Notes: generated from the letters alone by a model not told the origin. Counted from the stretch's first letter, positions 7,664-28,673 are shown. The stretch is 64,000 nucleotides of DNA from Candidatus Parcubacteria bacterium (GCA_026395685.1 JAPLYG010000009.1:17519-81518), one strand, 5' to 3'. Translations and numbers: made by a program.

Positions 7664-9124
7664 ATGAATCCAGGCAATGTCATTGTCAGATTTAACGAAG
7701 TCACATTTTCTTATGATAAAAATAAGCCTATCTTAACCGAGGCTAATTTTTCCGTGCGCGAAAATACAAAAATAACCATCATGGGTCAAAACGGCGCCGG
7801 CAAAAGCACTATTTTTAAATTAATCACAGGGGAATTAAAACCCAACGAAGGCTTGGCCTCTGTTACGCCGGGAACGACCATCGCTATTGCCGCTCAAGTC
7901 ATGAGTCGCGATAACATGAAAAAAACCATTGAAGAATATTTCAGTCATGCTTTTAATAAAAAAATCTATAATCTCCCTCGAAAAATTAAAAAAGTTCTGG
8001 ACATTGTTCATTTAGACGCGCCTCTTGATCGCAAAATAATTCAGTTTTCCGGCGGACAACAAGCGCGATTACTTTTGGCTTTTGCGTTGATTCAAGAACC
8101 GGACATTTTACTGCTTGATGAACCGACAAATAATTTGGATGCCGAAGGCATAAAACACTTAACTGAATTTCTCATGGAATATGTCAAAACCTGTCTGGTA
8201 ATTTCACATGATGCGGATTTTTTAAACACCTTTACCGACGGCGTTCTCTATCTGGATTCTTATACTCAGAAAGTTGAACAATATGTCGGTAATTATTATG
8301 ACGTGCTTAATGAAATTGAGGCCCAGCTTGAACGCGAACGAGCCAAAAATGCTCAATTAAGAAAAAGCATTCAGGATCGAAAAGATAAAGTTAATTTCTT
8401 TGCCAACAAAGGCGGTAAGATGCGCAAGCTGGCCAGCAAGCTGCGTGACCAGGTGGAAGAAGCCGAAGAGCACATGGTTGACGAACGCCAGGAAGATAAA
8501 ACCATCAATCCTTTTACAATTCCGGTTCAGCCGGATATTTCCGGAATCATCGCCCAGATAAAATCAGTCGGAGTCATGGTCAATCATAATCCGGTTGAAA
8601 AAAAGCTCATCCACCCGATTGAAGTCAGGCTAAAATCAAAACTGCTTTTAAAGGGTCCAAATGGTATAGGCAAAAGTACATTACTGAAAGCTTTGGCGGA
8701 TGGCAGTGAAAAAGGAGCTCAAATTTCTCCAAATATAAAAATCGGCTATTACCAGCAGGACTTTGCGGGTCTTGATTTTGAAAAAACTGCTTATCAGGTT
8801 TTGGAAGAAATGATGGAGATTCCTTTTAACCAGACAATCTACGCGACAGCCGCACAATTCTTATTATCCTCAGAAATATTAAGGAACAAAGTCGGTTCCC
8901 TATCCGAAGGCCAAAAAGGCTTGCTCTGCTATGCCAGATTTGTCCTACAAAAACCAGGGCTCTTGATTATGGATGAACCGACCAATCACATCAACTTCCG
9001 CCACTTGCCCATAATTGCCAAAGCCCTCAATGATTACCAGGGCGCCCTGATCCTGGTCAGCCATGCGTATGAATTTATTGACCAGATTGAGATTACAGAA
9101 ACGCTTGATCTGGGGACACTTTAA
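7664..9124 (+). CDS. ABC-F family ATPase (two tandem nucleotide-binding domains, no TM)
   Basis: Two Walker A motifs (GQNGAGKST; GPNGIGKST), two signature motifs (FSGGQQ; LSEGQK), charged linker. Confidence 0.85.
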   Translation: MNPGNVIVRFNEVTFSYDKNKPILTEANFSVRENTKITIMGQNGAGKSTIFKLITGELKPNEGLASVTPGTTIAIAAQVMSRDNMKKTIEEYFSHAFNKKIYNLPRKIKKVLDIVHLDAPLDRKIIQFSGGQQARLLLAFALIQEPDILLLDEPTNNLDAEGIKHLTEFLMEYVKTCLVISHDADFLNTFTDGVLYLDSYTQKVEQYVGNYYDVLNEIEAQLERERAKNAQLRKSIQDRKDKVNFFANKGGKMRKLASKLRDQVEEAEEHMVDERQEDKTINPFTIPVQPDISGIIAQIKSVGVMVNHNPVEKKLIHPIEVRLKSKLLLKGPNGIGKSTLLKALADGSEKGAQISPNIKIGYYQQDFAGLDFEKTAYQVLEEMMEIPFNQTIYATAAQFLLSSEILRNKVGSLSEGQKGLLCYARFVLQKPGLLIMDEPTNHINFRHLPIIAKALNDYQGALILVSHAYEFIDQIEITETLDLGTL

Positions 9125-18538: not shown

Positions 18539-20149
18539 CTAAGTCATTAACGTTTCTTCCTCACTTGGCACGGCTTTTTTAAAAACTGACTGCCATAAAA
18601 ATAAAACGTCATTTTTAGTAAAACCTTTTAGCAAATACATAATCCCCAAATAAATAACGGCTCCGATAATAATTAATATTAAAAAATTCAGCTGAGCTTT
18701 TAATGATAAAATAACCGACGCCATCATCAAGGCGGCTAATACAGACTTTACAGACTTTATTAATAAATATTTATAGTCAAAACCGGTAATCTTTGGTACC
18801 TGAACTAAATTAAGAATAAATAACAAGGTCAAACTTACCAAAGCTGCAAAAGCCGCACCGATATGCTGATAAAGCGGAATTAAAATAATATTCAATATCA
18901 CATTTAAAATCATAGTTATTCCCATATTTAAAGTGTTTCGTCCCTGTTTATCGCAGGCATTTAAAATTGCTCCGGCCGGATAATTTAGAAACATAGGAAC
19001 AATGGCAAATATAAAAATCTGCATGGCTAAAATTGAAGGAATAAATTCGGCAGTATAAAGCGATAAAATTATCTTGTCTGCCAAGCAGGCAATACCTATG
19101 GCTGAAGGAACCGATAGAATAATCAGCAGGTACATGGATTTATCAAAAATCAATCTTAATTTTTCCTTGTTATTTAAAAAACAGTCGCTCATGGCCGGAT
19201 AAATCGCGGCTGAAAATGCTGCCGGCACAAACTGAAAAGCATAAGTAATTTTATACGGCACAGAATACCAGCCCAAAGCCTGATCGCCAATTAAAACTGA
19301 AAGCAAAATCTGATCAATATAGCTGTAAACACGGACAAAGATGCCGGCTAAAGCAAAAGGCAACGCAATCTTAAATAATGTCCTTAAAATTGATTTATCC
19401 CATAACAGCTTAAAATTAAACTTTAATTTTACTTTAAGCAAAATCAAGGAGTACAGAAAATTAAAAGTACTGCCGGCCAAAAGCGCCAAGACTAAAATAT
19501 ATAAAGGAAATTTTAAATAAATACCGGCCAACCCAACCCCTAAAATTACAATCTGATTAATGGCAATGCCAATAGCTTCATATTTTAAATTTTGGTATGC
19601 GCGGAAAACTGCGAAAAAAGCCAGGGTGAAAGAATCCAAAATCATAACCAGTCCGGCCAGATAAACCATAACCTGAGAAAGCTGGGGTTTACCCAATAAA
19701 TTAATTACGACAGCGACGCCCAAATATGACAATATTGCCAAAACAATTTTGACTGTAATTATATTATTCAAATATTCATTAGCCTTGTCCTTGAACTTGG
19801 CTGCCTCGCGGATCAAAACACTGGACAAACCCATATCAATAAAAACCGAAAAAATCGTGGTCAAAGAAATTGCAAAGGTATAAACTCCGATATCATTGGC
19901 GCCGATAAAACGCGCGACCAAGGTAAAATAAATAAAAGCAAATATTTTCTGAAAAATATATGCTCCGGTCAGCCAGGTTGTATTTTTGGCTATGCTTTGC
20001 GCTTGTGGACTCATAGACAGTAAAATTAACAGGATTCCCCTGCCTAAGCTTATTTTAGCATAAAACCTCCAAAATTCAAACAAAGATTTCCTCTCTAAAA
20101 TACAAAGAAGCGATTTATTAATCGCTCCTCTGCTCACAATATTTTTCAA
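18539..20149 (-). CDS. polysaccharide flippase (Wzx/MOP superfamily)
   Basis: ~14 TM helices, 536 aa, in a glycosyltransferase cluster. Confidence 0.7.
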   Translation of the reverse strand: MKNIVSRGAINKSLLCILERKSLFEFWRFYAKISLGRGILLILLSMSPQAQSIAKNTTWLTGAYIFQKIFAFIYFTLVARFIGANDIGVYTFAISLTTIFSVFIDMGLSSVLIREAAKFKDKANEYLNNIITVKIVLAILSYLGVAVVINLLGKPQLSQVMVYLAGLVMILDSFTLAFFAVFRAYQNLKYEAIGIAINQIVILGVGLAGIYLKFPLYILVLALLAGSTFNFLYSLILLKVKLKFNFKLLWDKSILRTLFKIALPFALAGIFVRVYSYIDQILLSVLIGDQALGWYSVPYKITYAFQFVPAAFSAAIYPAMSDCFLNNKEKLRLIFDKSMYLLIILSVPSAIGIACLADKIILSLYTAEFIPSILAMQIFIFAIVPMFLNYPAGAILNACDKQGRNTLNMGITMILNVILNIILIPLYQHIGAAFAALVSLTLLFILNLVQVPKITGFDYKYLLIKSVKSVLAALMMASVILSLKAQLNFLILIIIGAVIYLGIMYLLKGFTKNDVLFLWQSVFKKAVPSEEETLMT

Positions 20150-20157
20150 TTTGATAT

Positions 20158-21264
20158 TTAAATTCCTTCTTTTCCCAATTCTTCCAAAAGTTCCTTTTGC
20201 CTTCTATTTAATTTCTCCGGGGTTTTGACAAGCACTTCAACCAGCTGGTCTCCCCGGCCATAATGCTGAAAACGAGTCACGCCCTTACCCCGCAAAATAA
20301 AAACCTTGCCGGATTGGGTAGCGGCTGGAATTTTCAAATCAACTTCGCCGTCAACTGTCTGTACGCTTATTTTTCCTCCCAAAGCAGCCAAAGAATATGA
20401 AATTTCAGTTTGAGTTAAAATATCATCGCCTTCACGTTTGAAATATGGATCAGACTTAACATGGATATGAATATATAAATCACCTGCTTTGCCGCTTTTA
20501 ATGCCGGCTTCACCTTGGCCAGCCATTTTCAAACTCATGCCGTTATTCAAACCGGCTGAAATTTTCACGTCCATCTGAACCTTTTGTTTTATCCTTCCCT
20601 GGCCATCGCACTGAGTGCAATTTTTCTCATTAATTTTACCTTCACCCCGGCATTCGTCACAGGCACCAATGGTCTGAATATTGCCCAAAATTGTCCGCTG
20701 CATTTTATGAACCTGGCCTTTACCGTCACAAGCTTTGCAGGTAACAATTTTACTGCCCGGTTCTGCGCCATTGCCATGGCAATGCTCGCAAGAAATCAAT
20801 TTAATCAATTCAATTTTTTTGTCCGCGCCAAAAACCGCTTCTTTAAATTCCAATTCCAAACCAATTTCAATATCCCTGCCCCTGGTTTCCCGACGTCGGC
20901 GACTTCCACCGCCAAAACCTCCGCCGAACATACCGCCTAAAATATCTCCCAAATCACCCATATCGAAATCTACGTTACTGTAAGAACCACCGCCTTGTCG
21001 CGCCTGGCGCATAATATCTTCCCAGCCCATACCTCCGCCAAATCCACCCTGCTGAGTAAAATCAGAGCCAAACTGGTCATACTGCTGGCGTTTCTCATCA
21101 TTTGCCAAAACCTGATAAGCCTCATTGATTTCCTTAAACTTTTTTTCATCACCGCCTGGTTTATCAGGATGAAAAAGATGGGCCTTCTCGCGGAAGGCCT
21201 TTTTGATATCTTCTTTGGAGGCGGTTTTTCCGACGCCAAGTATGTTATAGTAATCCTTTGACAT
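20158..21264 (-). CDS. dnaJ: chaperone DnaJ
   Basis: J-domain with HPD (DYYNILGV...HPDK), G/F-rich linker, four CxxCxGxG zinc repeats. Confidence 0.9.
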   Translation of the reverse strand: MSKDYYNILGVGKTASKEDIKKAFREKAHLFHPDKPGGDEKKFKEINEAYQVLANDEKRQQYDQFGSDFTQQGGFGGGMGWEDIMRQARQGGGSYSNVDFDMGDLGDILGGMFGGGFGGGSRRRRETRGRDIEIGLELEFKEAVFGADKKIELIKLISCEHCHGNGAEPGSKIVTCKACDGKGQVHKMQRTILGNIQTIGACDECRGEGKINEKNCTQCDGQGRIKQKVQMDVKISAGLNNGMSLKMAGQGEAGIKSGKAGDLYIHIHVKSDPYFKREGDDILTQTEISYSLAALGGKISVQTVDGEVDLKIPAATQSGKVFILRGKGVTRFQHYGRGDQLVEVLVKTPEKLNRRQKELLEELGKEGI

Positions 21265-21327
21265 TTATAAATCGTTAATCGTTATTCGGGACCGATGTTC
21301 GTTATGTTATATACAAATCACTATTTA
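21265..21327. repeat. intergenic repeat family B (cgttacg/aacgataacg words), short copy
   Basis: aatcgttaatcgttattcgg...gttcgttatgttat directly upstream of dnaJ start. Confidence 0.4.
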
Positions 21328-22611
21328 TTAATCACGTTCCTTCATTCCTTTCTCCTTAAAAATCTTTTTTACTTCCTCAAGAAATTCCGGATTCTTATCA
21401 AAATCTAATTTTGTACCATGGAAAATATCTCTTAAATACTTGCCGATTGTTCTCTCAATTGATAAAAAAACTTCCGGTCCGCCGGCAACCATACCCTGTC
21501 TTTGCCAAATTTTCAAAGTGGAAGCCACATCCTCAATTTCCTCGCCCGGATTGATTAAAATCAGATCATCAACCGGCGTTTTTTTCCCAAGTGCCTTGTC
21601 ATGCTGGAAGTCTTCCTGCTGTTTTCTAACCTGATTCTGCTTTTTTATAAATTCAGATGTTCCGGAAGTAATAAGAGTTACCTGATAGCCCTTTTTCAAT
21701 TCGCTTTCAGTCGGATTCTTCTCAATACCGATACCACGTCTTTTATTGACCAATTCCAGAATTACATCAATCTTATTCACGATATCATCATCGGCCGTGG
21801 CATTACTAATATCAAAATTCCATTTCACGCCTAAGTCAAATGCTACTTTGGTCAGCAAACAGTTAATCATTCTTTCAAAAACAAAACCTGAAGGCATCTC
21901 AGTGTAGCTTTTACCAGCCGCCCTTAAAACCTTAATCTTTTTTAGAGTTTCATATGTTTTTAGGTATGCGTTACCGATGCCTTTGCCCTGATTATTCTTC
22001 GGAATCTTGTTAATCTCAATTCTTTCAATCAGTAATTGCTCCTCTTCAATTTCATCCAAATGCGCATCAAATATTTTGGCATTATAAATATTTATAAATT
22101 CAGCCAATTCCGGCTGATTTTCCAATGCCTTAATGTCATAATACATGCCCCAACCAATATCACTAATCAAATCGCCAGCTGTGCGTTTTGCTTGATAACC
22201 GCCTTTGGCTTCAAAAATGAACATCTGAGATTCAGAATCGTATTCAATCGGGCGAGTATTTGCCACTTCCGGCTGTTCGCCCTTCCTTTTGGCGATTATT
22301 AAACGCTGTCGTTCCACTTCCAATTCAAAGATTTTTCTTTGAGCTGGCGTCTTATCAGGATCATTGACATCAATATTGCCATAAGCTTTAATCTGCCGTT
22401 TCAGCTGTGATTTTATCTTTTTATATTCATCCGTGCCAAGATCTTCCTCACTGCTATTTTCAAATTCAATTTTTTGGCGCGCCAAATCAGCCGCCGCTAC
22501 ATAATCAAAGCCAGTTTCAGATTGTTCCTGTTTCTCAAATGATAGCATAGAAATATAATAATTTGTTAAACACTTATTAATTTTCACAGATATCACAGAT
22601 TTTCGAAACAT
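21328..22611 (-). CDS. hypothetical protein inside dnaK-dnaJ operon (no recognisable domain)
   Basis: 427-aa ORF co-oriented between dnaK and dnaJ; start choice uncertain. Confidence 0.55.
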   Translation of the reverse strand: MFRKSVISVKINKCLTNYYISMLSFEKQEQSETGFDYVAAADLARQKIEFENSSEEDLGTDEYKKIKSQLKRQIKAYGNIDVNDPDKTPAQRKIFELEVERQRLIIAKRKGEQPEVANTRPIEYDSESQMFIFEAKGGYQAKRTAGDLISDIGWGMYYDIKALENQPELAEFINIYNAKIFDAHLDEIEEEQLLIERIEINKIPKNNQGKGIGNAYLKTYETLKKIKVLRAAGKSYTEMPSGFVFERMINCLLTKVAFDLGVKWNFDISNATADDDIVNKIDVILELVNKRRGIGIEKNPTESELKKGYQVTLITSGTSEFIKKQNQVRKQQEDFQHDKALGKKTPVDDLILINPGEEIEDVASTLKIWQRQGMVAGGPEVFLSIERTIGKYLRDIFHGTKLDFDKNPEFLEEVKKIFKEKGMKERD

Positions 22612-22765
22612 TATCCGTGTAATCTGTGAACAAAATCAGTGGTTCCGTTACCTACACCGTCGGAAACGGTATCCCCCTTGGCGCTTTTTCCCTTTTCCCC
22701 ACACGATCGAACACTTTAGTGTTCGAGGGCGACCTTTGACACTAAAGTGTCAAAGCCTCTGAGGG
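22612..22765 (-). promoter_or_regulatory. highly structured leader region (three stable hairpins) upstream of the 427-aa gene
   Basis: Hairpins CUUUGACAC-UUUA-GUGUCAAAG, CGAACAC-UAAA-GUGUUCG and CACAGAUU...AAUCUGUG read on the minus strand. Confidence 0.35.
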
Positions 22766-23050
22766 TTAAACATTCGGGAATGGGATGCCTTTGGGAGCAT
22801 CTGCCTCTTTAATCTCGCCGAACGACTTCTCATACATCTCCAGATTATCCTGCAGGGCCTTAATAATCCTTTTCATATGTCCGGGACTTGTTATCACCCT
22901 GGCGGTCATTATCCCCTGTGGAGGCACCACATTGGCAAAATCCAAAATAAACTCCTCTTTGGTATGCATTACCTGCATCATGTTGGCATACCTCCCTTCC
23001 AGAATCTCATCCGTAATCTTGATATTGATTTGATTGGGTTGATTTTCCAT
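22766..23050 (-). CDS. DUF3467-family small protein
   Basis: YANMMQVMHTKEEFILDFANVVP...RVITSPGHMKRIIKALQDNLEMYEKSFGEI matches the DUF3467 pattern as recalled. Confidence 0.55.
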   Translation of the reverse strand: MENQPNQINIKITDEILEGRYANMMQVMHTKEEFILDFANVVPPQGIMTARVITSPGHMKRIIKALQDNLEMYEKSFGEIKEADAPKGIPFPNV

Positions 23051-23086
23051 AAAACTTATAGATTATTAATGAGGGAAAAATTATTA

Positions 23087-24988
23087 TTATTTTTTCTCTT
23101 CAAATTCACCTTCTTCCGGCTTTTTATCTTCAGCCTTTTGATCTTGATTGCCCTGATCCGCCGAAGCTTTTGCGGAGGCTTCCTGTTGAGCCTTATACAT
23201 CTCCGCTCCGATTTTTTGAGCGGATTGCATAACCGCGTCATTGGCTTTTTTAATAGCTTCGGCATCTAAACCGTCTTTAACCTTTTTCAATTCCTCAATC
23301 TTATTTTGAACTTCCTTTTTCATATCAGGATTAACCTTGTCGCCCAATTCAACTAAAGTCTTCTCAGTTGAATAAATCAAGGTATCGGCTGAATTTTTAA
23401 CTTCAATCAGTTCCTTTTTCTTTTTATCTTCTTCAGCATGGAGTTCCGCGTCTTTTTGCATTTTATCAATTTCTTCTTTAGATAATCCTGAAGAAGCAGT
23501 AATGGTTATTTTTTGTTCTTTACTTGTCGCCTTATCAACTGCCTTAACATTTAAAATACCATTAGCATCCAGATCAAAAGTAACTTCAACCTGAGGCATG
23601 CCGCGCGGAGCCGGTGGAATCCCAGATAAAATAAAACGACCTAAAGACTTATTGTCAGCCGCCATTTCACGTTCACCCTGCAAGACATTTATTTCCACTG
23701 AAGTCTGGGAATCAGCTGCCGTTGAAAAAACTTGCGATTTGGAAGTCGGGATGGTCGTGTTGCGGGCAATTAATTTGGTGCAAACACCACCTAGGGTTTC
23801 AATGCCTAATGATAATGGAGTGACGTCTAATAGCAAAACGTCCTTAACTTCACCCTGCATTACGCCTGCCTGAACAGCAGCGCCAATGGCTACGACTTCA
23901 TCAGGATTAACTCCCAAATGAGGCTTTTTGCCAAAAAATTCTTCCACTTTTTTCTGTACCAAAGGCATGCGGGTCATACCGCCGACCATGACGACTTCTT
24001 CTATTTCAGAGGTTTTAAATCCGGCATCAGCTAAAGCTTTTTTGCATGGTTCCAAAGTGGCTTCAACTAATTCACCGACCAGCTCTTCCAGTTTAGCGCG
24101 GGTCATTTTCATAACCAGATGTACAGGACTGCCGTCAGCACCCTGGGCAATAAACGGCTGATTAATTTCAGCTTCCACTGAAGAGGACAATTCAATTTTC
24201 GCTTTTTCACCGGCATCTTTGATTCTTTGCAAAGCCATGGGATCCTTAGACAGATCCAAACCGTTTTGTTTTTTAAATTCAGAAATTATCCAATCAATTA
24301 TTTTCTTGTCAAAATCATCACCGCCTAAATGAGTATCGCCGTTTGTTGATTTGACTTCTACAGTATCGGCGGTAACGTCCAAAATAGAAATATCAAAAGT
24401 GCCGCCGCCCAAATCATAAACCGCGATTTGCTGATCTTTTTTCTTGTCAAAACCATAAGCCAATGCAGCAGCAGTCGGTTCATTAATAATTCTTTTAACA
24501 TCCAGTCCGGCGATCTTACCGGCATCTTTAGTTGCCTGTCTTTGAGAATCGTCAAAATAAGCTGGCACAGTAATTATCGCCTCGGTAATTTTTTCACCGG
24601 TTTTCTCTTCAGCATCAGCTTTTAATTTCTGCAAAATCATGGCTGAAATTTCCTGAGGAGTATATTCCTTATCGTTCATTATAACCTTAACTCCGTCGCC
24701 TGACTGAATTAATTTATAAGGCAAGGTCTCTTTGTCTCTTTGCACTTCCTTGTCAGTCCATCTGCGACCGATCAAGCGTTTGATGGAAAAAATGGTGTTG
24801 GCTGGATTAGTTACAGCCTGCCTTTTAGCCAGCTGCCCAACCACTCTTTCTCCTGCTTTAGAAATAGCTACGACTGAAGGAGTTGTGCGCATGCCTTCTT
24901 TATTTTCCAGCACTTTTGGCTCACCGCCTTCAATAATCGCCATACATGAATTAGTTGTACCCAAATCAATACCTAAGATCTTTGACAT
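23087..24988 (-). CDS. dnaK: chaperone DnaK (Hsp70)
   Basis: [28 protein letters not shown] motifs; 633 aa. Confidence 0.95.
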
Positions 24989-25023
24989 ATGTTTGTAAAA
25001 TTTAATTATTAGTAAGCTTTTCA

Positions 25024-25059
25024 GCTTAGAGCTCTGGGCTTAGGGCTAGTGCTCTAAGC
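25024..25059. promoter_or_regulatory. CIRCE-like degenerate inverted repeat upstream of dnaK
   Basis: GCTTAGAGC-N18-GCTCTAAGC; right half contains AGTGCTCTAA resembling CIRCE GAGTGCTAA. Confidence 0.3.
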
Positions 25060-25097
25060 TCAAGGCTCATAGCTCCAAACAAATATTTTTTAATACC

Positions 25098-25126
25098 CTT
25101 GACAAAATCAAATATTATGGTTATAT
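25098..25126 (+). promoter_or_regulatory. sigma70-type promoter TTGACA-17-TATATT
   Basis: cTTGACAaaatcaaatattatggtTATATTaa. Confidence 0.5.
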
Positions 25127-25244
25127 TAATTAAGTAATTACGCAAATCTTTTTTAAGGAGGAAAAAAAGATGACGTAACGAGATTATTTTCTGCTGCGGA
25201 AAAGTTCCAAGTACAAACTGTCGAAAAGTTGAGGAGGGGTTTCC

Positions 25245-25631
25245 ATGTCTGATTCCGTTTGCGTTTGCGTAGAAATGCCAAAGAGTATGGGCCGAGTCAA
25301 AGCCAGAGAAGTGCGCTGGGAAATTCAGGCCCCGGTAATTAAAGCGGTCCAGTCCATCTGCGACAGCTGGGTAGATTCCCAAAAAATCGCCGCTTCCATA
25401 GCCAATGCTATCCCTAAAAAAACTCTCCGAAGAAAAATTGCGGCTGAGGAAGCAAAACCCAAAGCTTACAAAAAACCCGTCGTGGTGGAGGAAAAGATTT
25501 TTCTGAGCCTGCCGGAAAGAAAACGCGAACAGTATTATGTCAAACTCAGGGTTGCCAGAGAAGGTGTGGTTGAAGTACATCTTCATGAAAAACAAGAACT
25601 TATCGACCGAATAAAAGCCGGCCACGCCTGA
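25245..25631 (+). CDS. hypothetical basic (K/R-rich) 128-aa protein, GC-rich, opposite strand to surrounding operon
   Basis: Strong SD GAGGAGG 7 nt upstream of ATG, own promoter, own terminator; the antisense ORF 25026-25625 looks non-coding. Confidence 0.6.
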   Translation: MSDSVCVCVEMPKSMGRVKAREVRWEIQAPVIKAVQSICDSWVDSQKIAASIANAIPKKTLRRKIAAEEAKPKAYKKPVVVEEKIFLSLPERKREQYYVKLRVAREGVVEVHLHEKQELIDRIKAGHA

Positions 25632-25639
25632 TCCGACCC

Positions 25640-25676
25640 TTAGCCTGTTCCCCTTGCGGAACAGGCTTTTTTTATT
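25640..25676 (+). terminator. rho-independent terminator
   Basis: agcctgttcc-ccttgc-ggaacaggct followed by TTTTTTT. Confidence 0.8.
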
Positions 25677-25809
25677 TAATTAAAAATTCAAAGTGCAAAT
25701 TTCAAAGTTACAAAGCAAAGTTCAAAATGTTGGAACATAGTTATTAATAAACTTCCTAAATTTTTAATTAATAACTGCAATTTTGCACTTTAAACTTTGA
25801 ACTTTAAAC
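25677..25809. repeat. intergenic repeat family C (caaagtgcaaa / tttgcacttt, aaactttgaacttt words), near-palindromic
   Basis: Same word family at 28674-28851 and 39117-39259. Confidence 0.5.
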
Positions 25810-26289
25810 TTATTCACTCACCACCACTTTCGCCGGCGCTAAAACCTTTCCCTTTATTAAATAGCCGGAACTAATTTCAGCAATTATAATATCTGATTCA
25901 ATATCTTCTTTTTTTTCCTTATTAACCGCTTCATGGAATTCCGGATTAAACTTTTCACCGACTGTTTTAATTTCTTCAATGCCGTATTGCTTCAAAAAGT
26001 CCCCGAACTGCTTTTTAATCGCTTTGACCCCATCTACCCAGGCATTGCTTTGTTCAGCCGGCACAATCGCAACCGCCTTTTTCAAATTATCGTAAACTGG
26101 CAAAATTTCCATAATCAAAGCAGAATTGGCCAAATCAAAAAATGACTTTTGTTTTTCATCCATTTCTTTCTTAAAATTGACATAATCTGCTTTAGCCCGC
26201 TTCCAGCCGTTTAAATACTCTTCACACTGGGCTTTGAGCTTTTCGATTTCTTCCTTGTTGTTATCTAATTTTGTTGTTTGTTCTGGCAT
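25810..26289 (-). CDS. grpE: nucleotide exchange factor GrpE
   Basis: Coiled-coil N-terminus and conserved core (AKADYVNFKKEMDEK...MEILPVYDNL); hrcA-grpE-dnaK synteny. Confidence 0.85.
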   Translation of the reverse strand: MPEQTTKLDNNKEEIEKLKAQCEEYLNGWKRAKADYVNFKKEMDEKQKSFFDLANSALIMEILPVYDNLKKAVAIVPAEQSNAWVDGVKAIKKQFGDFLKQYGIEEIKTVGEKFNPEFHEAVNKEKKEDIESDIIIAEISSGYLIKGKVLAPAKVVVSE

Positions 26290-26382
26290 ATTTTTTCGTT
26301 TTTGGTTATTCGGTATCGATATTCGTTACGTTAAACGTTGATCGAAAAACGTTACGCTAAACGAAACCGCATAACGAATAAC
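26290..26382. repeat. intergenic repeat family B (cgttacgttaaacg / aacgtaacg), near-palindromic
   Basis: Exact 14-mer cgttacgttaaacg also at 48108; related copies at 34913-35034 and 21265-21327. Confidence 0.55.
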
Positions 26383-27078
26383 CTATATTTTAGTTAACGA
26401 ATTACTAATAAACTCCACCAGCGCCAAATTTTTATTATAATCCATTCTCTTTGGCCCTAAAATTATAAATAAACCGGTTGACTTATCATTTAAAAAATAC
26501 TTGCCAAAAACCGAGGAACAATCATCGCCAAAAGGATTTTTGGAGCCTATTAAAACTTGAACCTTATTAATCTTATCAAAAACCTGTTTAATCTTGTCAT
26601 CCAGATGGTCAATTACTTCAGAAACATTTTTAATTAAATTCTGGTCGCTAAATTCCGGTTTTTTAAAAAGGTTGGCTAAGCCGGTGTAATAAATATGATC
26701 TTTATCAAAAGCAACGATAACTGTAGCGTCAGCCAGTTCCACTGCGGTCTTGGCCAGATTTTTCATCAGTTCATCATCGTCAATTTTTTGTTTCAATACC
26801 AGTTCAAATGACTTGCGCCAGGTAGCTTTGATTTCCCGCTTTTCTACAAAATTATCGACATAGAATTGATAACCTTTTTCAGTCGGTACTCTGCCGGCAG
26901 AAGTATGGGGCTGGTAAATCAATCCTTCTTTTTCCAAATCCGCCATTTCATTCCTGAGTGTGGCAGATGATAAATCCAAGCCACCCTTATCCACCAAAAA
27001 GCTTGAGCCGACTGGTTCGGCTGTCTTAATATGCTCGTTAATGATCAAATTGAGTAATTTTTTCTGCCTTTCATTCAT
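26383..27078 (-). CDS. hrcA: heat-inducible transcription repressor HrcA
   Basis: N-terminal winged-helix (MNERQKKLLNLIINEHIKTAEPVGSS...LSSATLRNEMADLEKEGLI); CIRCE upstream. Confidence 0.85.
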   Translation of the reverse strand: MNERQKKLLNLIINEHIKTAEPVGSSFLVDKGGLDLSSATLRNEMADLEKEGLIYQPHTSAGRVPTEKGYQFYVDNFVEKREIKATWRKSFELVLKQKIDDDELMKNLAKTAVELADATVIVAFDKDHIYYTGLANLFKKPEFSDQNLIKNVSEVIDHLDDKIKQVFDKINKVQVLIGSKNPFGDDCSSVFGKYFLNDKSTGLFIILGPKRMDYNKNLALVEFISNSLTKI

Positions 27079-27240
27079 AAAATAATTTAATCACCAATCA
27101 TCAATTACCAATCATCAAACAATACCTAATTATTAAATCCTACTAACTAAAACGTTTTAAAATTTAGAATTTGGGCATTTGAATTTGTTTGGATCTTGGA
27201 GTTTGATTATTGATTATTATAGCTACATTTATTACCTTTA
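27079..27240. repeat. intergenic imperfect-palindrome repeat family A, copy 2
   Basis: Shares caatcatcaaacaatacc, aatttagaa, gaatttgttt, gattattgat blocks with copy 1. Confidence 0.55.
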
Positions 27241-27278
27241 AATCCAATTCAAACCTTACTTATAGTATAATGCAGCTA

Positions 27279-27305
27279 TTAGCAGTCGTCAAGCCCGAGT
27301 GCTAA
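27279..27305. promoter_or_regulatory. CIRCE operator (HrcA binding site)
   Basis: TTAGCAGTC-N9-GAGTGCTAA vs consensus TTAGCACTC-N9-GAGTGCTAA (1 mismatch), upstream of hrcA. Confidence 0.75.
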
Positions 27306-27416
27306 TAGGTTACTAATCTACTACCCCCCTAATTTGTAGATTAGTAGCTTATTAGTAAATTAGCAGCAATAAAAAAAGGCAAGCTTTCGCCTGACTTCAG
27401 ACTTCGAACTTCGGAC

Positions 27417-28673
27417 TTATTCTTTTCTCAGTGCCACCATTGGATCCAAAGCTGCCGCGCTTCTCGCAGGGTAAATGCCAGAAACCAGGCCCACAAAAAT
27501 TGAAATGCCTGAAGCCAATAATAAGTAAGTCAAAGAAAAATAAAACTGCCAGTCAAAATTTAAAAAATTAGTAGCTACATAGCTGATGAGCCAGGTTATA
27601 AATACGCCAAGAATAATTCCCAAAATTCCGCCCATGAAAGTTATAATCACGGCTTCAACTAAAAACTGATTTAATATATCAGCTGACTTCGCGCCCAGGG
27701 CTTTGCGCAAGCCGATTTCAAAAGTACGCTCGGCCACAGAGACATACATCACATTCATAATCCCCACGCCACCCACGACTAAAGAAATACAAGCCAGGGC
27801 AAAGAGTAAAATTTTTATAGCGCCGGTAATCACAGCCAGCATTTCCAAGGCCTGATCAGAAGTCGTGGCTGCAAAATCATCCATGTTCGGATCAGTAATA
27901 TCATGAAGATCCCGCATTAAATAATCAATATCATCAACCGTCTCAGGACCTAATGATTTATCCTTCATGGTTGCCATGATAAACGTGACATAATCAATGC
28001 CCAAAATTAATTTCTGCATAGATCGCAAAGGCATGATGATCATATCATCCATGGAAAAAACCCCGGCGCTTCCCCTTTCCGCCATGACTCCGACTACTTT
28101 AAAATTATATTTTTTTATTTTCACAAATTGTCCGATTGCTTGCTGATCGCCAAACAAAGAATCCTTGATCTTACTGCCTAAGACAATGACCCTGGCCAAC
28201 CCCTTGTCTTCCGCATCAGTAAAAAACCTGCCTTCGCTGATTGTGCCTGTATCTACCCGCTGAAAACCCTCGGTGACGCCAAAAATCATAGAAATTTTAT
28301 TTTTATCTTCAAAGGAAACTACTTCCTGCCCTGTTGAGGCAGAGTAGACATCTTTTATATTGGAAAGTTTTTGAATTTCCACAGCATCTTTTTCTTTCAT
28401 GGTAGTAATGGTAATGCCCTGAGCCATGCCCCCGGCATTTTCCACTGAAGTATGCCCGGTTGCCGGAATTTTTACTTCCACCTGCACCCAATCAGTGCCA
28501 AACTGAGTAACCTGGCTGGTAATAAAAAACTCAATCGCTTTGCCGGCTGACAAAACCACAATCACCGCGGAAATACCGACGGTAATGCCCAGAATCGTCA
28601 AAACAGCCCTTAGCTTGTGGCTGATAATGGCTGCCCTGGCGATTTCGATTGATTTTCTGGTCTTCGTAAACAT
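27417..28673 (-). CDS. ABC transporter permease, FtsX/MacB family
   Basis: N-terminal TM, large extracytoplasmic domain, C-terminal 3-TM FtsX core. Confidence 0.8.
   Translation of the reverse strand: MFTKTRKSIEIARAAIISHKLRAVLTILGITVGISAVIVVLSAGKAIEFFITSQVTQFGTDWVQVEVKIPATGHTSVENAGGMAQGITITTMKEKDAVEIQKLSNIKDVYSASTGQEVVSFEDKNKISMIFGVTEGFQRVDTGTISEGRFFTDAEDKGLARVIVLGSKIKDSLFGDQQAIGQFVKIKKYNFKVVGVMAERGSAGVFSMDDMIIMPLRSMQKLILGIDYVTFIMATMKDKSLGPETVDDIDYLMRDLHDITDPNMDDFAATTSDQALEMLAVITGAIKILLFALACISLVVGGVGIMNVMYVSVAERTFEIGLRKALGAKSADILNQFLVEAVIITFMGGILGIILGVFITWLISYVATNFLNFDWQFYFSLTYLLLASGISIFVGLVSGIYPARSAAALDPMVALRKE

Follow-up and report, generated by a model that had tools for sequence, protein, structure and literature searches.

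The 64-kb window considered here is the whole of the stretch of Candidatus Parcubacteria DNA that was analysed (GC = 0.39), and its subject is an Hsp70 gene cluster, listed in Table 1 and compared below with related metagenome loci, which are numbered L001 upward. Read along the minus strand, the order is a CIRCE operator (controlling inverted repeat of chaperone expression), hrcA, grpE, a gene on the plus strand, an inverted repeat, dnaK, a small gene of the DUF3467 family, a 217-nt spacer, a gene for an unknown protein here called X, and dnaJ. From dnaK through DUF3467 and X to dnaJ the genes form a same-strand run; the spacers within it contain no minus-strand terminator-like site and no CIRCE, and the gap between X and dnaJ, also free of a terminator-like site, measures 63 nt. 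A preliminary description of this DNA had taken the whole for a single co-oriented operon. That stands for dnaK, DUF3467, X and dnaJ, which share one strand, but the cluster is not one operon, since the plus-strand gene separates grpE from dnaK.

Table 1. Features of the Hsp70 cluster in the window and, in the last rows, of genes in related loci
Feature	Position	Strand	Remarks
dnaJ	20158..21264	-	368 aa; J domain, zinc-finger domain, C-terminal domain (Pfam)
X, unknown protein	21328..22548	-	406 aa
Remaining spacer hairpin	22583..22630	-	common to L006; z = -3.9 in window, -2.5 in L006
Fossil copy of DUF3467 3′ end, APRGIPFPTV*	22652..22684	-	in frame with live gene
81-nt insertion with two palindromic hairpins	22685..22765	-	hairpins ~22733-22756 and ~22706-22727
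DUF3467 protein	22766..23050	-	94 aa; PF11950, E=4e-23
dnaK	23087..24988	-	633 aa; PF00012, E=3e-256
AT-rich motif TTAcTAATAATTAA	25002..25015	-	14-27 nt 5′ of dnaK ATG
Perfect 10-bp inverted repeat AGCTTAGAGC-N18-GCTCTAAGCT	25023..25060		5′ of dnaK; not CIRCE
Self-contained unit	25099..25667	+	promoter, leader, 128-aa open reading frame (ORF), terminator
Promoter TTGACA-17-TATATT	25099-25127	+	near-consensus
Weak A/U hairpin	25146-25171	+	encloses mini-ORF
Leader mini-ORF ATG-ACG-TAA	25170-25178	+	three codons; own Shine-Dalgarno sequence
128-aa ORF	25245-25631	+	behind strong Shine-Dalgarno sequence
Canonical intrinsic terminator	25642-25667	+
grpE	25810..26289	-	159 aa; PF01025, E=9e-43
hrcA, short form	26383..27078	-	231 aa; PF01628, E=3e-19
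Sigma-70-like promoter TTGACG-17-TATACT	27264..27292	-	10/12 matches
CIRCE operator TTAGCACTC-N9-GACTGCTAA	27279..27305	-	1 mismatch to consensus
GIY-YIG genes beside DUF3467	L001 7686-7994; L003 5900-6193; L023 4321-4629		~100 aa
Y1_Tnp (HUH) genes beside DUF3467	L002 7397-7972; L015 879-1433; L024 245-787		~185 aa
hsp20 in grpE-dnaK slot	L092 3258-3677; L082 1940-2386; L100 2594-3010	operon strand
DUF3467-patatin pairing	L014 4931-6866; L019-L022; L042; L047

Set beside the hrcA-grpE-dnaK-dnaJ operon of Bacillus subtilis (Firmicutes), the window shares the core order hrcA-grpE-dnaK...dnaJ and a CIRCE of the B. subtilis-type consensus, TTAGCACTC-N9-GAGTGCTAA, lying over a sigma-70/sigma-A-type promoter 5′ of hrcA. 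It differs in having an HrcA shorter by about 100 residues, an opposite-strand gene that divides the cluster, no CIRCE at dnaK, and DUF3467 and X between dnaK and dnaJ. The regulon is of a known kind with a Patescibacteria-specific architecture, and we consider it probable that the locus is the Parcubacteria version, within Patescibacteria or the candidate phyla radiation (CPR), of the HrcA/CIRCE Hsp70 cluster, rearranged by insertions. What follows on the functions of DUF3467 and X are unproven proposals drawn from sequences and models.

HrcA, CIRCE and the break before dnaK

The near-perfect CIRCE that had been noticed 5′ of hrcA is confirmed: against a chance expectation of 0.01, it is the one site in the 64 kb that comes within 3 mismatches, and at that level neither dnaK nor dnaJ has a CIRCE of its own. 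The -35 hexamer of the hrcA promoter lies inside the spacer and right arm of the operator, and the CTTGAC within the CIRCE spacer is kept in L001, L003, L066 and L100. All eight relatives that contain hrcA (L001, L003, L030, L038, L066, L082, L092 and L100) carry CIRCE 5′ of it; the site is perfect in L003 and L092, shares the window's single mismatch in L001, and occurs in two copies in L030 and L038. HrcA itself is a short variant in which the N-terminal winged-helix region is intact and about 100 central residues of the canonical model are missing. The NCBIfam model TIGR00331 (338 positions) aligns to it in two stretches, with residues 2-122 matching model positions 1-123, and scores 195.6 bits, just under the equivalog cutoff of 197.2; a length of ~230 aa is common to all the Patescibacterial loci examined. 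These features support HrcA/CIRCE control for the hrcA end of the cluster, which would be ordinary, textbook regulation.

The interruption downstream of grpE is a self-contained plus-strand unit with its own promoter, leader, ORF and terminator. The gene in it has a strong Shine-Dalgarno sequence, whereas the chaperone genes nearby have none. Positional homologues in L001 and L003 are merely 23-26% identical at the amino-acid level, and promoter and mini-ORF (ATG-ACN-TAA) are kept in both; the 128-aa protein has no family match in Pfam, NCBIfam or PADLOC. In distant Patescibacterial operons the same slot is filled by hsp20 (alpha-crystallin) on the operon strand, giving the order hrcA-grpE-hsp20-dnaK-DUF3467-dnaJ in L082, L092 and L100. 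In this lineage dnaK would be cut off from the CIRCE promoter by the convergent unit, and CIRCE control of dnaK appears to have been lost in the window's genome. HrcA would then directly repress only hrcA-grpE there, and dnaK-DUF3467-X-dnaJ would be a second transcription unit, served by an AT-rich promoter just 5′ of dnaK or by read-through.

A degenerate second CIRCE-like repeat had been proposed upstream of dnaK. The repeat is real, and perfect over 10 bp, without being CIRCE-like: its closest half-site differs from CIRCE at 2 positions, a match of a quality found 91 times across the window, and the best full site 5′ of dnaK, in scans with fixed and with variable spacers, has 5 mismatches and a non-canonical spacing. 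In an alignment of five upstream regions (the window, L001, L003, L023 and L025) the 10-bp repeat is not conserved in any of the four relatives (HrcA identity 89-92% in those that contain hrcA); each of the five genomes carries palindromes of its own 5′ of dnaK, and no related locus has a CIRCE there. The sole conserved block in the alignment is TTAnTAATAATTAA, 14-27 nt 5′ of the dnaK ATG, a likely -10 region of a dnaK promoter. Moreover, perfect inverted repeats of >=9 bp number 33 in the window against 12.9 +/- 3.6 in shuffles, 10 of them within 22583-27346, and given this excess the repeat upstream of dnaK is one of many. With at least 5 mismatches to CIRCE and no counterpart in the four relatives, it was rejected as an HrcA operator. 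The intergenic regions here are generally rich in lineage-specific low-complexity quasi-palindromes (for example at 25680-25811, 26321-26402 and 27300-27368), whose positions persist among close relatives while their sequences differ. The dnaK of L001 (4242-6209, on a 565-kb Falkowbacteria contig) is broken into at least six frame-shifted pieces; these are ~91% identical to the window's DnaK, so the breakage is probably an artefact of assembly or sequencing and not a pseudogene.

Expecting a second operator was reasonable, though the window does not bear it out. A second one-mismatch CIRCE lies directly 5′ of dnaJ in L066 (7285-7311) and L100 (7529-7555), where dnaJ is displaced by ~1 kb from DUF3467, so extra HrcA operators do arise in this group upon operon splitting. 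These two loci lend some support to the view that DUF3467 and X are co-chaperones or stress factors of one HrcA operon, with a degenerate operator at dnaK and an RNA-thermometer leader at X. The opposite-strand gene with its terminator, which interrupts such an operon, and the poor match of the dnaK repeat count against it, and the evidence from X and from its supposed leader is taken up below.

DUF3467 in the Hsp70 cluster

The DUF3467-like protein noted between dnaK and dnaJ does belong to that family, scoring 81.7 bits against PF11950 where the cutoff is 25, and it has 282 homologues at 59-96% identity. Metagenome contigs were scanned with the DUF3467 alignment and the best 80 loci were analysed; in 16 of these best 80, dnaJ lies downstream of DUF3467. 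The simplest Patescibacterial form is a tight, CIRCE-headed hrcA-grpE-dnaK-DUF3467-dnaJ operon, in which the gaps on the two sides of DUF3467 are as small as 19 and 24 nt (L038) or ~30 and ~50 nt (L092). Among the distant operon-type loci (L030-L100), identity to the window's proteins is 56-69% for DUF3467 and 55-76% for DnaK, as against 42-49% for DnaJ, 33-43% for GrpE and 33-45% for HrcA. On this comparison DUF3467 is a fixed part of the Hsp70 cluster in Patescibacteria and is under strong constraint.

Both extra proteins had been put forward as candidate co-chaperones or stress factors, and the two fare differently. Because DUF3467 keeps its place between dnaK and dnaJ at a DnaK identity of 55% and is conserved much as DnaK is, it is the better candidate for an Hsp70 partner, and a stress or chaperone role for it is plausible; X, missing from most clusters, is an unlikely one. 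The support for DUF3467 as a co-chaperone is genomic linkage: scans of domain libraries found no J-domain, GrpE, BAG or other chaperone domain in DUF3467 or X, and a profile search found no PDB relative of DUF3467. A SecB-like identity was also tried and rejected (hhalign of the DUF3467 alignment against E. coli SecB gave a probability of 0.1%, and the PDB profile search was negative).

A precedent and working model is DafA of Thermus thermophilus, a lineage-restricted DnaK-DnaJ assembly factor of fewer than 100 aa that is encoded in the dnaK operon; like it, DUF3467 is a small protein of a dnaK operon that may act with DnaK and DnaJ. The likeness is one of description, and unlike DafA, DUF3467 is highly conserved and widespread beyond one phylum. 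By this analogy DUF3467 may be a small partner of the Hsp70 system, whether as assembly factor, client adaptor or modulator. Its placement in CIRCE-controlled dnaK operons thus offers a testable Hsp70-partner hypothesis for a domain found in many phyla.

A less probable account, which we hold only tentatively, denies DUF3467 any functional tie to Hsp70 and takes its position for frozen synteny, the dnaK-dnaJ interval being a tolerated insertion site. The interval between dnaK and DUF3467 does carry variable cargo in relatives (S-adenosylmethionine-dependent methyltransferases, an EcoRI-type methylase, Fic, Bro-N and a trypsin-like protein), and phage family phrog_7919 also matches DUF3467. In non-Patescibacterial loci, in many of which its identity exceeds 60%, DUF3467 has no chaperone neighbours, often preceding instead a same-strand gene for a patatin-like phospholipase of ~475-485 aa; other neighbours vary. 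Against frozen synteny stand the persistence of the linkage where HrcA, GrpE and DnaJ are only 33-49% identical, the gaps of 19-30 nt in operons that begin with CIRCE and include hsp20, and a conservation at the level of DnaK, which argues for a constrained partner. To these may be added the proteome of P. gingivalis under chlorhexidine stress, where DUF3467 is up 5-fold next to GroES (PMC11986949); this is the single mention of DUF3467 in the searchable literature, where PF11950 goes unmentioned. The patatin pairing is a second conserved partnership of DUF3467 in its own right.

Protein X

The 427-aa gene without recognisable domain that had been reported upstream of dnaJ is a real gene of no known family, shorter than first drawn. 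All eight homologues begin at M22 of the 427-aa ORF (window 22548), and in the two relatives checked there are in-frame stops 18 codons (L006) and 4 codons (L004) 5′ of that ATG; X is therefore 406 aa, and the spacer before it 217 nt and not 150. NCBI protein NTZ49_02280, which comes from a metagenome-assembled genome of Candidatus Parcubacteria, has the identical 406-aa sequence. A word-indexed search yielded 8 relatives, and an exhaustive profile search 486 clusters at E<=1e-3 (356 at <=1e-10), with named members in Parcubacteria, Buchananbacteria, Falkowbacteria and Giovannonibacteria, all CPR. Neither X nor its distant and longer members match any Pfam, NCBIfam, PADLOC or PHROG family, and 20 longer members show no informative domain fusion. 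A phage origin was considered and rejected, two distant subfamilies being without relatives in IMG/VR viral contigs.

The order DUF3467-X-dnaJ recurs in L001-L006, L011, L012, L023-L029 and L060, with X down to 30-33% identity, so that at least 15 related loci keep the gene order that had been singled out for comparison. X changes fast within this frame: its identity is 30-37% in loci where DnaK stays at 86-89%, and between L025 and the window DnaK is 89% identical, DUF3467 90%, DnaJ 70% and X 33%. Occupation of the DUF3467-dnaJ slot by X is confined to one clade. Most Patescibacterial dnaK-DUF3467-dnaJ clusters are without X, and elsewhere in Patescibacteria there is either no gene in the slot or one for an unrelated multi-pass membrane protein (L015-18, L030, L095, L100). 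A 393-aa Kerfeldbacteria protein between DUF3467 and dnaJ was rejected as an X homologue, since it is a multi-pass membrane protein that the X hidden Markov model does not match. Two distant members of the family, in L010 and L013, were placed; the L013 contig is too short for its neighbourhood to be read, and the L010 member is not beside chaperone genes. Since X is missing from most clusters and stands outside a chaperone context in L010, a general co-chaperone role is unlikely.

A narrower role is conceivable, in which X is a lineage-specific client adaptor or modulator of DnaJ or DUF3467, coupled to the chaperones though not universal. X lies on the same strand directly 5′ of dnaJ in every locus of the clade, even at 30-33% identity and sometimes with a gap of 7-9 nt (L005, L027); no cognate methyltransferase or defence partner sits between dnaK and dnaJ in the window, and two distant subfamilies of X have no relatives in viral contigs. 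We nevertheless judge this role unlikely, given that the slot is empty or otherwise filled in other lineages, that a distant family member sits elsewhere in its genome, that X diverges much faster than any adjoining chaperone gene, and that no J domain, domain resembling a nucleotide exchange factor, or other chaperone-related domain was detected in it. We read X instead as a lineage-specific passenger of a tolerant slot, probably transcribed with dnaJ: a fast-evolving gene that would ride on dnaJ transcription.

The predicted structure gives a hint of another kind. The AlphaFold2 model of X, from a 93-sequence alignment, is confident (predicted local distance difference test, pLDDT, 91.8; predicted template-modelling score, pTM, 0.90), with an N-terminal part of long helices followed by a four-strand beta-meander and a C-terminal domain of the order alpha-beta-beta-beta-alpha-beta; the invariant residues are G221, E225, D255, D261, Q289, K303, W348 and G357. 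No significant Foldseek match was found in PDB or BFVD. Among the top 50 sub-threshold PDB matches, 22 are PD-(D/E)xK nucleases or proteins with a domain of that kind, and behind these 22 are seven distinct proteins, namely the R2 endonuclease, BstEII, Nt.BspD6I, EcoO109I and three cap-snatching endonucleases (bunyaviral/arenaviral); the best BFVD match, likewise non-significant, is annotated as a PD-(D/E)xK nuclease. Shared with that fold are the order of secondary structures in the C-terminal domain, an invariant Glu on its first helix and an invariant Asp where beta-2 begins, but unlike these nucleases X has Q-x-T in place of (D/E)xK and an invariant Lys in the next helix. It also differs from restriction nucleases in having no methyltransferase beside it in the window and no sequence-profile link: the profile search earlier proposed for this protein, run against the PDB with the whole protein and with the C-terminal domain alone, found no match and no nuclease. 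The C-terminal core and the invariant E/D/D/Q/K residues of the model suggest, as a hint, a restriction-endonuclease-like enzyme and not a chaperone component. In any case, X is a well-defined piece of CPR dark matter, with ~486 clusters, a confident model and no significant solved relative.

The spacer before X and the locus as a whole

The spacer between DUF3467 and X (22549-22765) folds at -66 kcal/mol (z = -3.9), so the strong structure that had been attributed to a 150-nt leader with three hairpins is there; that it is a leader of X does not follow from its history. Two of the hairpins, whose apical cores are mutually complementary (ACACTTTAGTGT / ACACTAAAGTGT), lie in an 81-nt insertion that is absent in L006, L001, L003, L004 and L011. 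L006 is the closest relative with a plain spacer and aligns with the window on both flanks of the 81-nt gap. In the window, the live 33-nt tail of DUF3467 reads APKGIPFPNV*, the insertion follows, and after it comes a 33-nt fossil copy of the tail that is closest to the live tail of L006 (APKGIPFPTV*); the third hairpin of the preliminary description overlaps this fossil. In L023, too, the live tail is succeeded by both hairpins, hairpin 1 differing by a single compensatory change (G-C to U-A), and then by a fossil tail (L023 4214-4267); a GIY-YIG gene and ~0.8 kb of further sequence come next and only then X, so that the hairpins of L023 lie >1.2 kb and several genes from X. The hairpins thus follow the DUF3467 3′ end and mobile-element insertions and are not tied to X.

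The suggestion of an RNA thermometer finds no support in the same evidence, hairpins 1 and 2 being absent in five relatives and not beside X in L023, or at the translation start, which is uncovered and has no Shine-Dalgarno sequence. The one remaining hairpin spans the mistaken start codon of the 427-aa ORF and ends 35 nt 5′ of the true AUG at 22548, before which ~20 nt are unpaired and A/U-rich in the predicted fold. The region 20000-28000, scanned against Rfam with E as high as 1, returned just a chance snoRNA match inside dnaJ. For the single HrcA operon with a thermometer at X there remain, besides the second CIRCE of L066 and L100, the order DUF3467-X-dnaJ in at least 15 loci, short X-dnaJ gaps and a significantly structured spacer. 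We nonetheless regard that arrangement as very improbable, since besides the broken operon and the poor operator the true start codon lies under no hairpin, hairpins 1 and 2 are missing in L006 and four others and stand several genes from X in L023, and X itself is not in most dnaK-DUF3467-dnaJ clusters.

The neighbourhood of the DUF3467 3′ end suggests a different origin for the hairpins. At the DUF3467-X junction there are GIY-YIG genes in L001 and L003, and Y1_Tnp genes in L002 and, at the corresponding place, in the Kerfeldbacteria loci (L015-18); in L024 and L029 a Y1_Tnp gene lies just 5′ of DUF3467. To judge by these positions, insertions seem to favour the 3′ end of DUF3467. The likeness is to free-standing GIY-YIG genes, IS200/IS605-type (Y1 HUH) elements and repetitive extragenic palindromic (REP)-like palindromes, relatives carrying such genes where the window has two palindromes. 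Unlike those elements, the window's site retains no transposase or nuclease gene, and the element is single-copy, its hairpin sequence not being repeated elsewhere in the 64 kb; related CACT(T/A)(T/A)AGTG palindromes occur only as single copies in a few relatives, and IS200/IS605 insertion is not known to leave a duplicated gene tail such as the 33-nt one here. On this view the spacer hairpins would be the scar of a small palindromic mobile insertion and not a regulatory leader. In L003, long imperfect inverted repeats stand on both sides of the GIY-YIG gene.

The reading that we favour for the whole locus, with a probability of about 0.6, joins these elements: hrcA-grpE under HrcA, a separate dnaK-DUF3467-X-dnaJ unit, DUF3467 as an Hsp70 partner, X as a passenger and the hairpins as an insertion scar. 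Several points weigh against it. X has been kept directly 5′ of dnaJ during a divergence to ~30%, and a functional link to DnaJ would look alike. We infer from sequence where the operons end, which promoter serves dnaK and that X is co-transcribed with dnaJ. The nuclease-like fold matches of X are non-significant (best E=0.11-0.48, TM <=0.34), the (D/E)xK triad of canonical form is missing, with Q289-x-T291 on beta-3, and no nuclease came out of the profile searches with the C-terminal domain. Finally, DUF3467 is unlinked to dnaK outside Patescibacteria, so its role may be general and its position here historical. On a bolder reading, DUF3467 would be an unrecognised Hsp70 component and X a CPR-restricted protein recruited as an additional DnaJ- or DUF3467-linked factor in one Parcubacteria clade, a combination that we hold to be possible but doubtful.

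On the favoured reading, with X as passenger and the hairpins as scar, the locus illustrates how a core operon may be remodelled in small genomes, through a gene inserted at the hsp20 slot, an apparent loss of CIRCE control over dnaK, and scars that duplicate gene ends. A fossil gene end is seen at one further place, in L003, where a fossil dnaJ 5′ end (7895-7960) lies 5′ of an inserted 252-aa gene.

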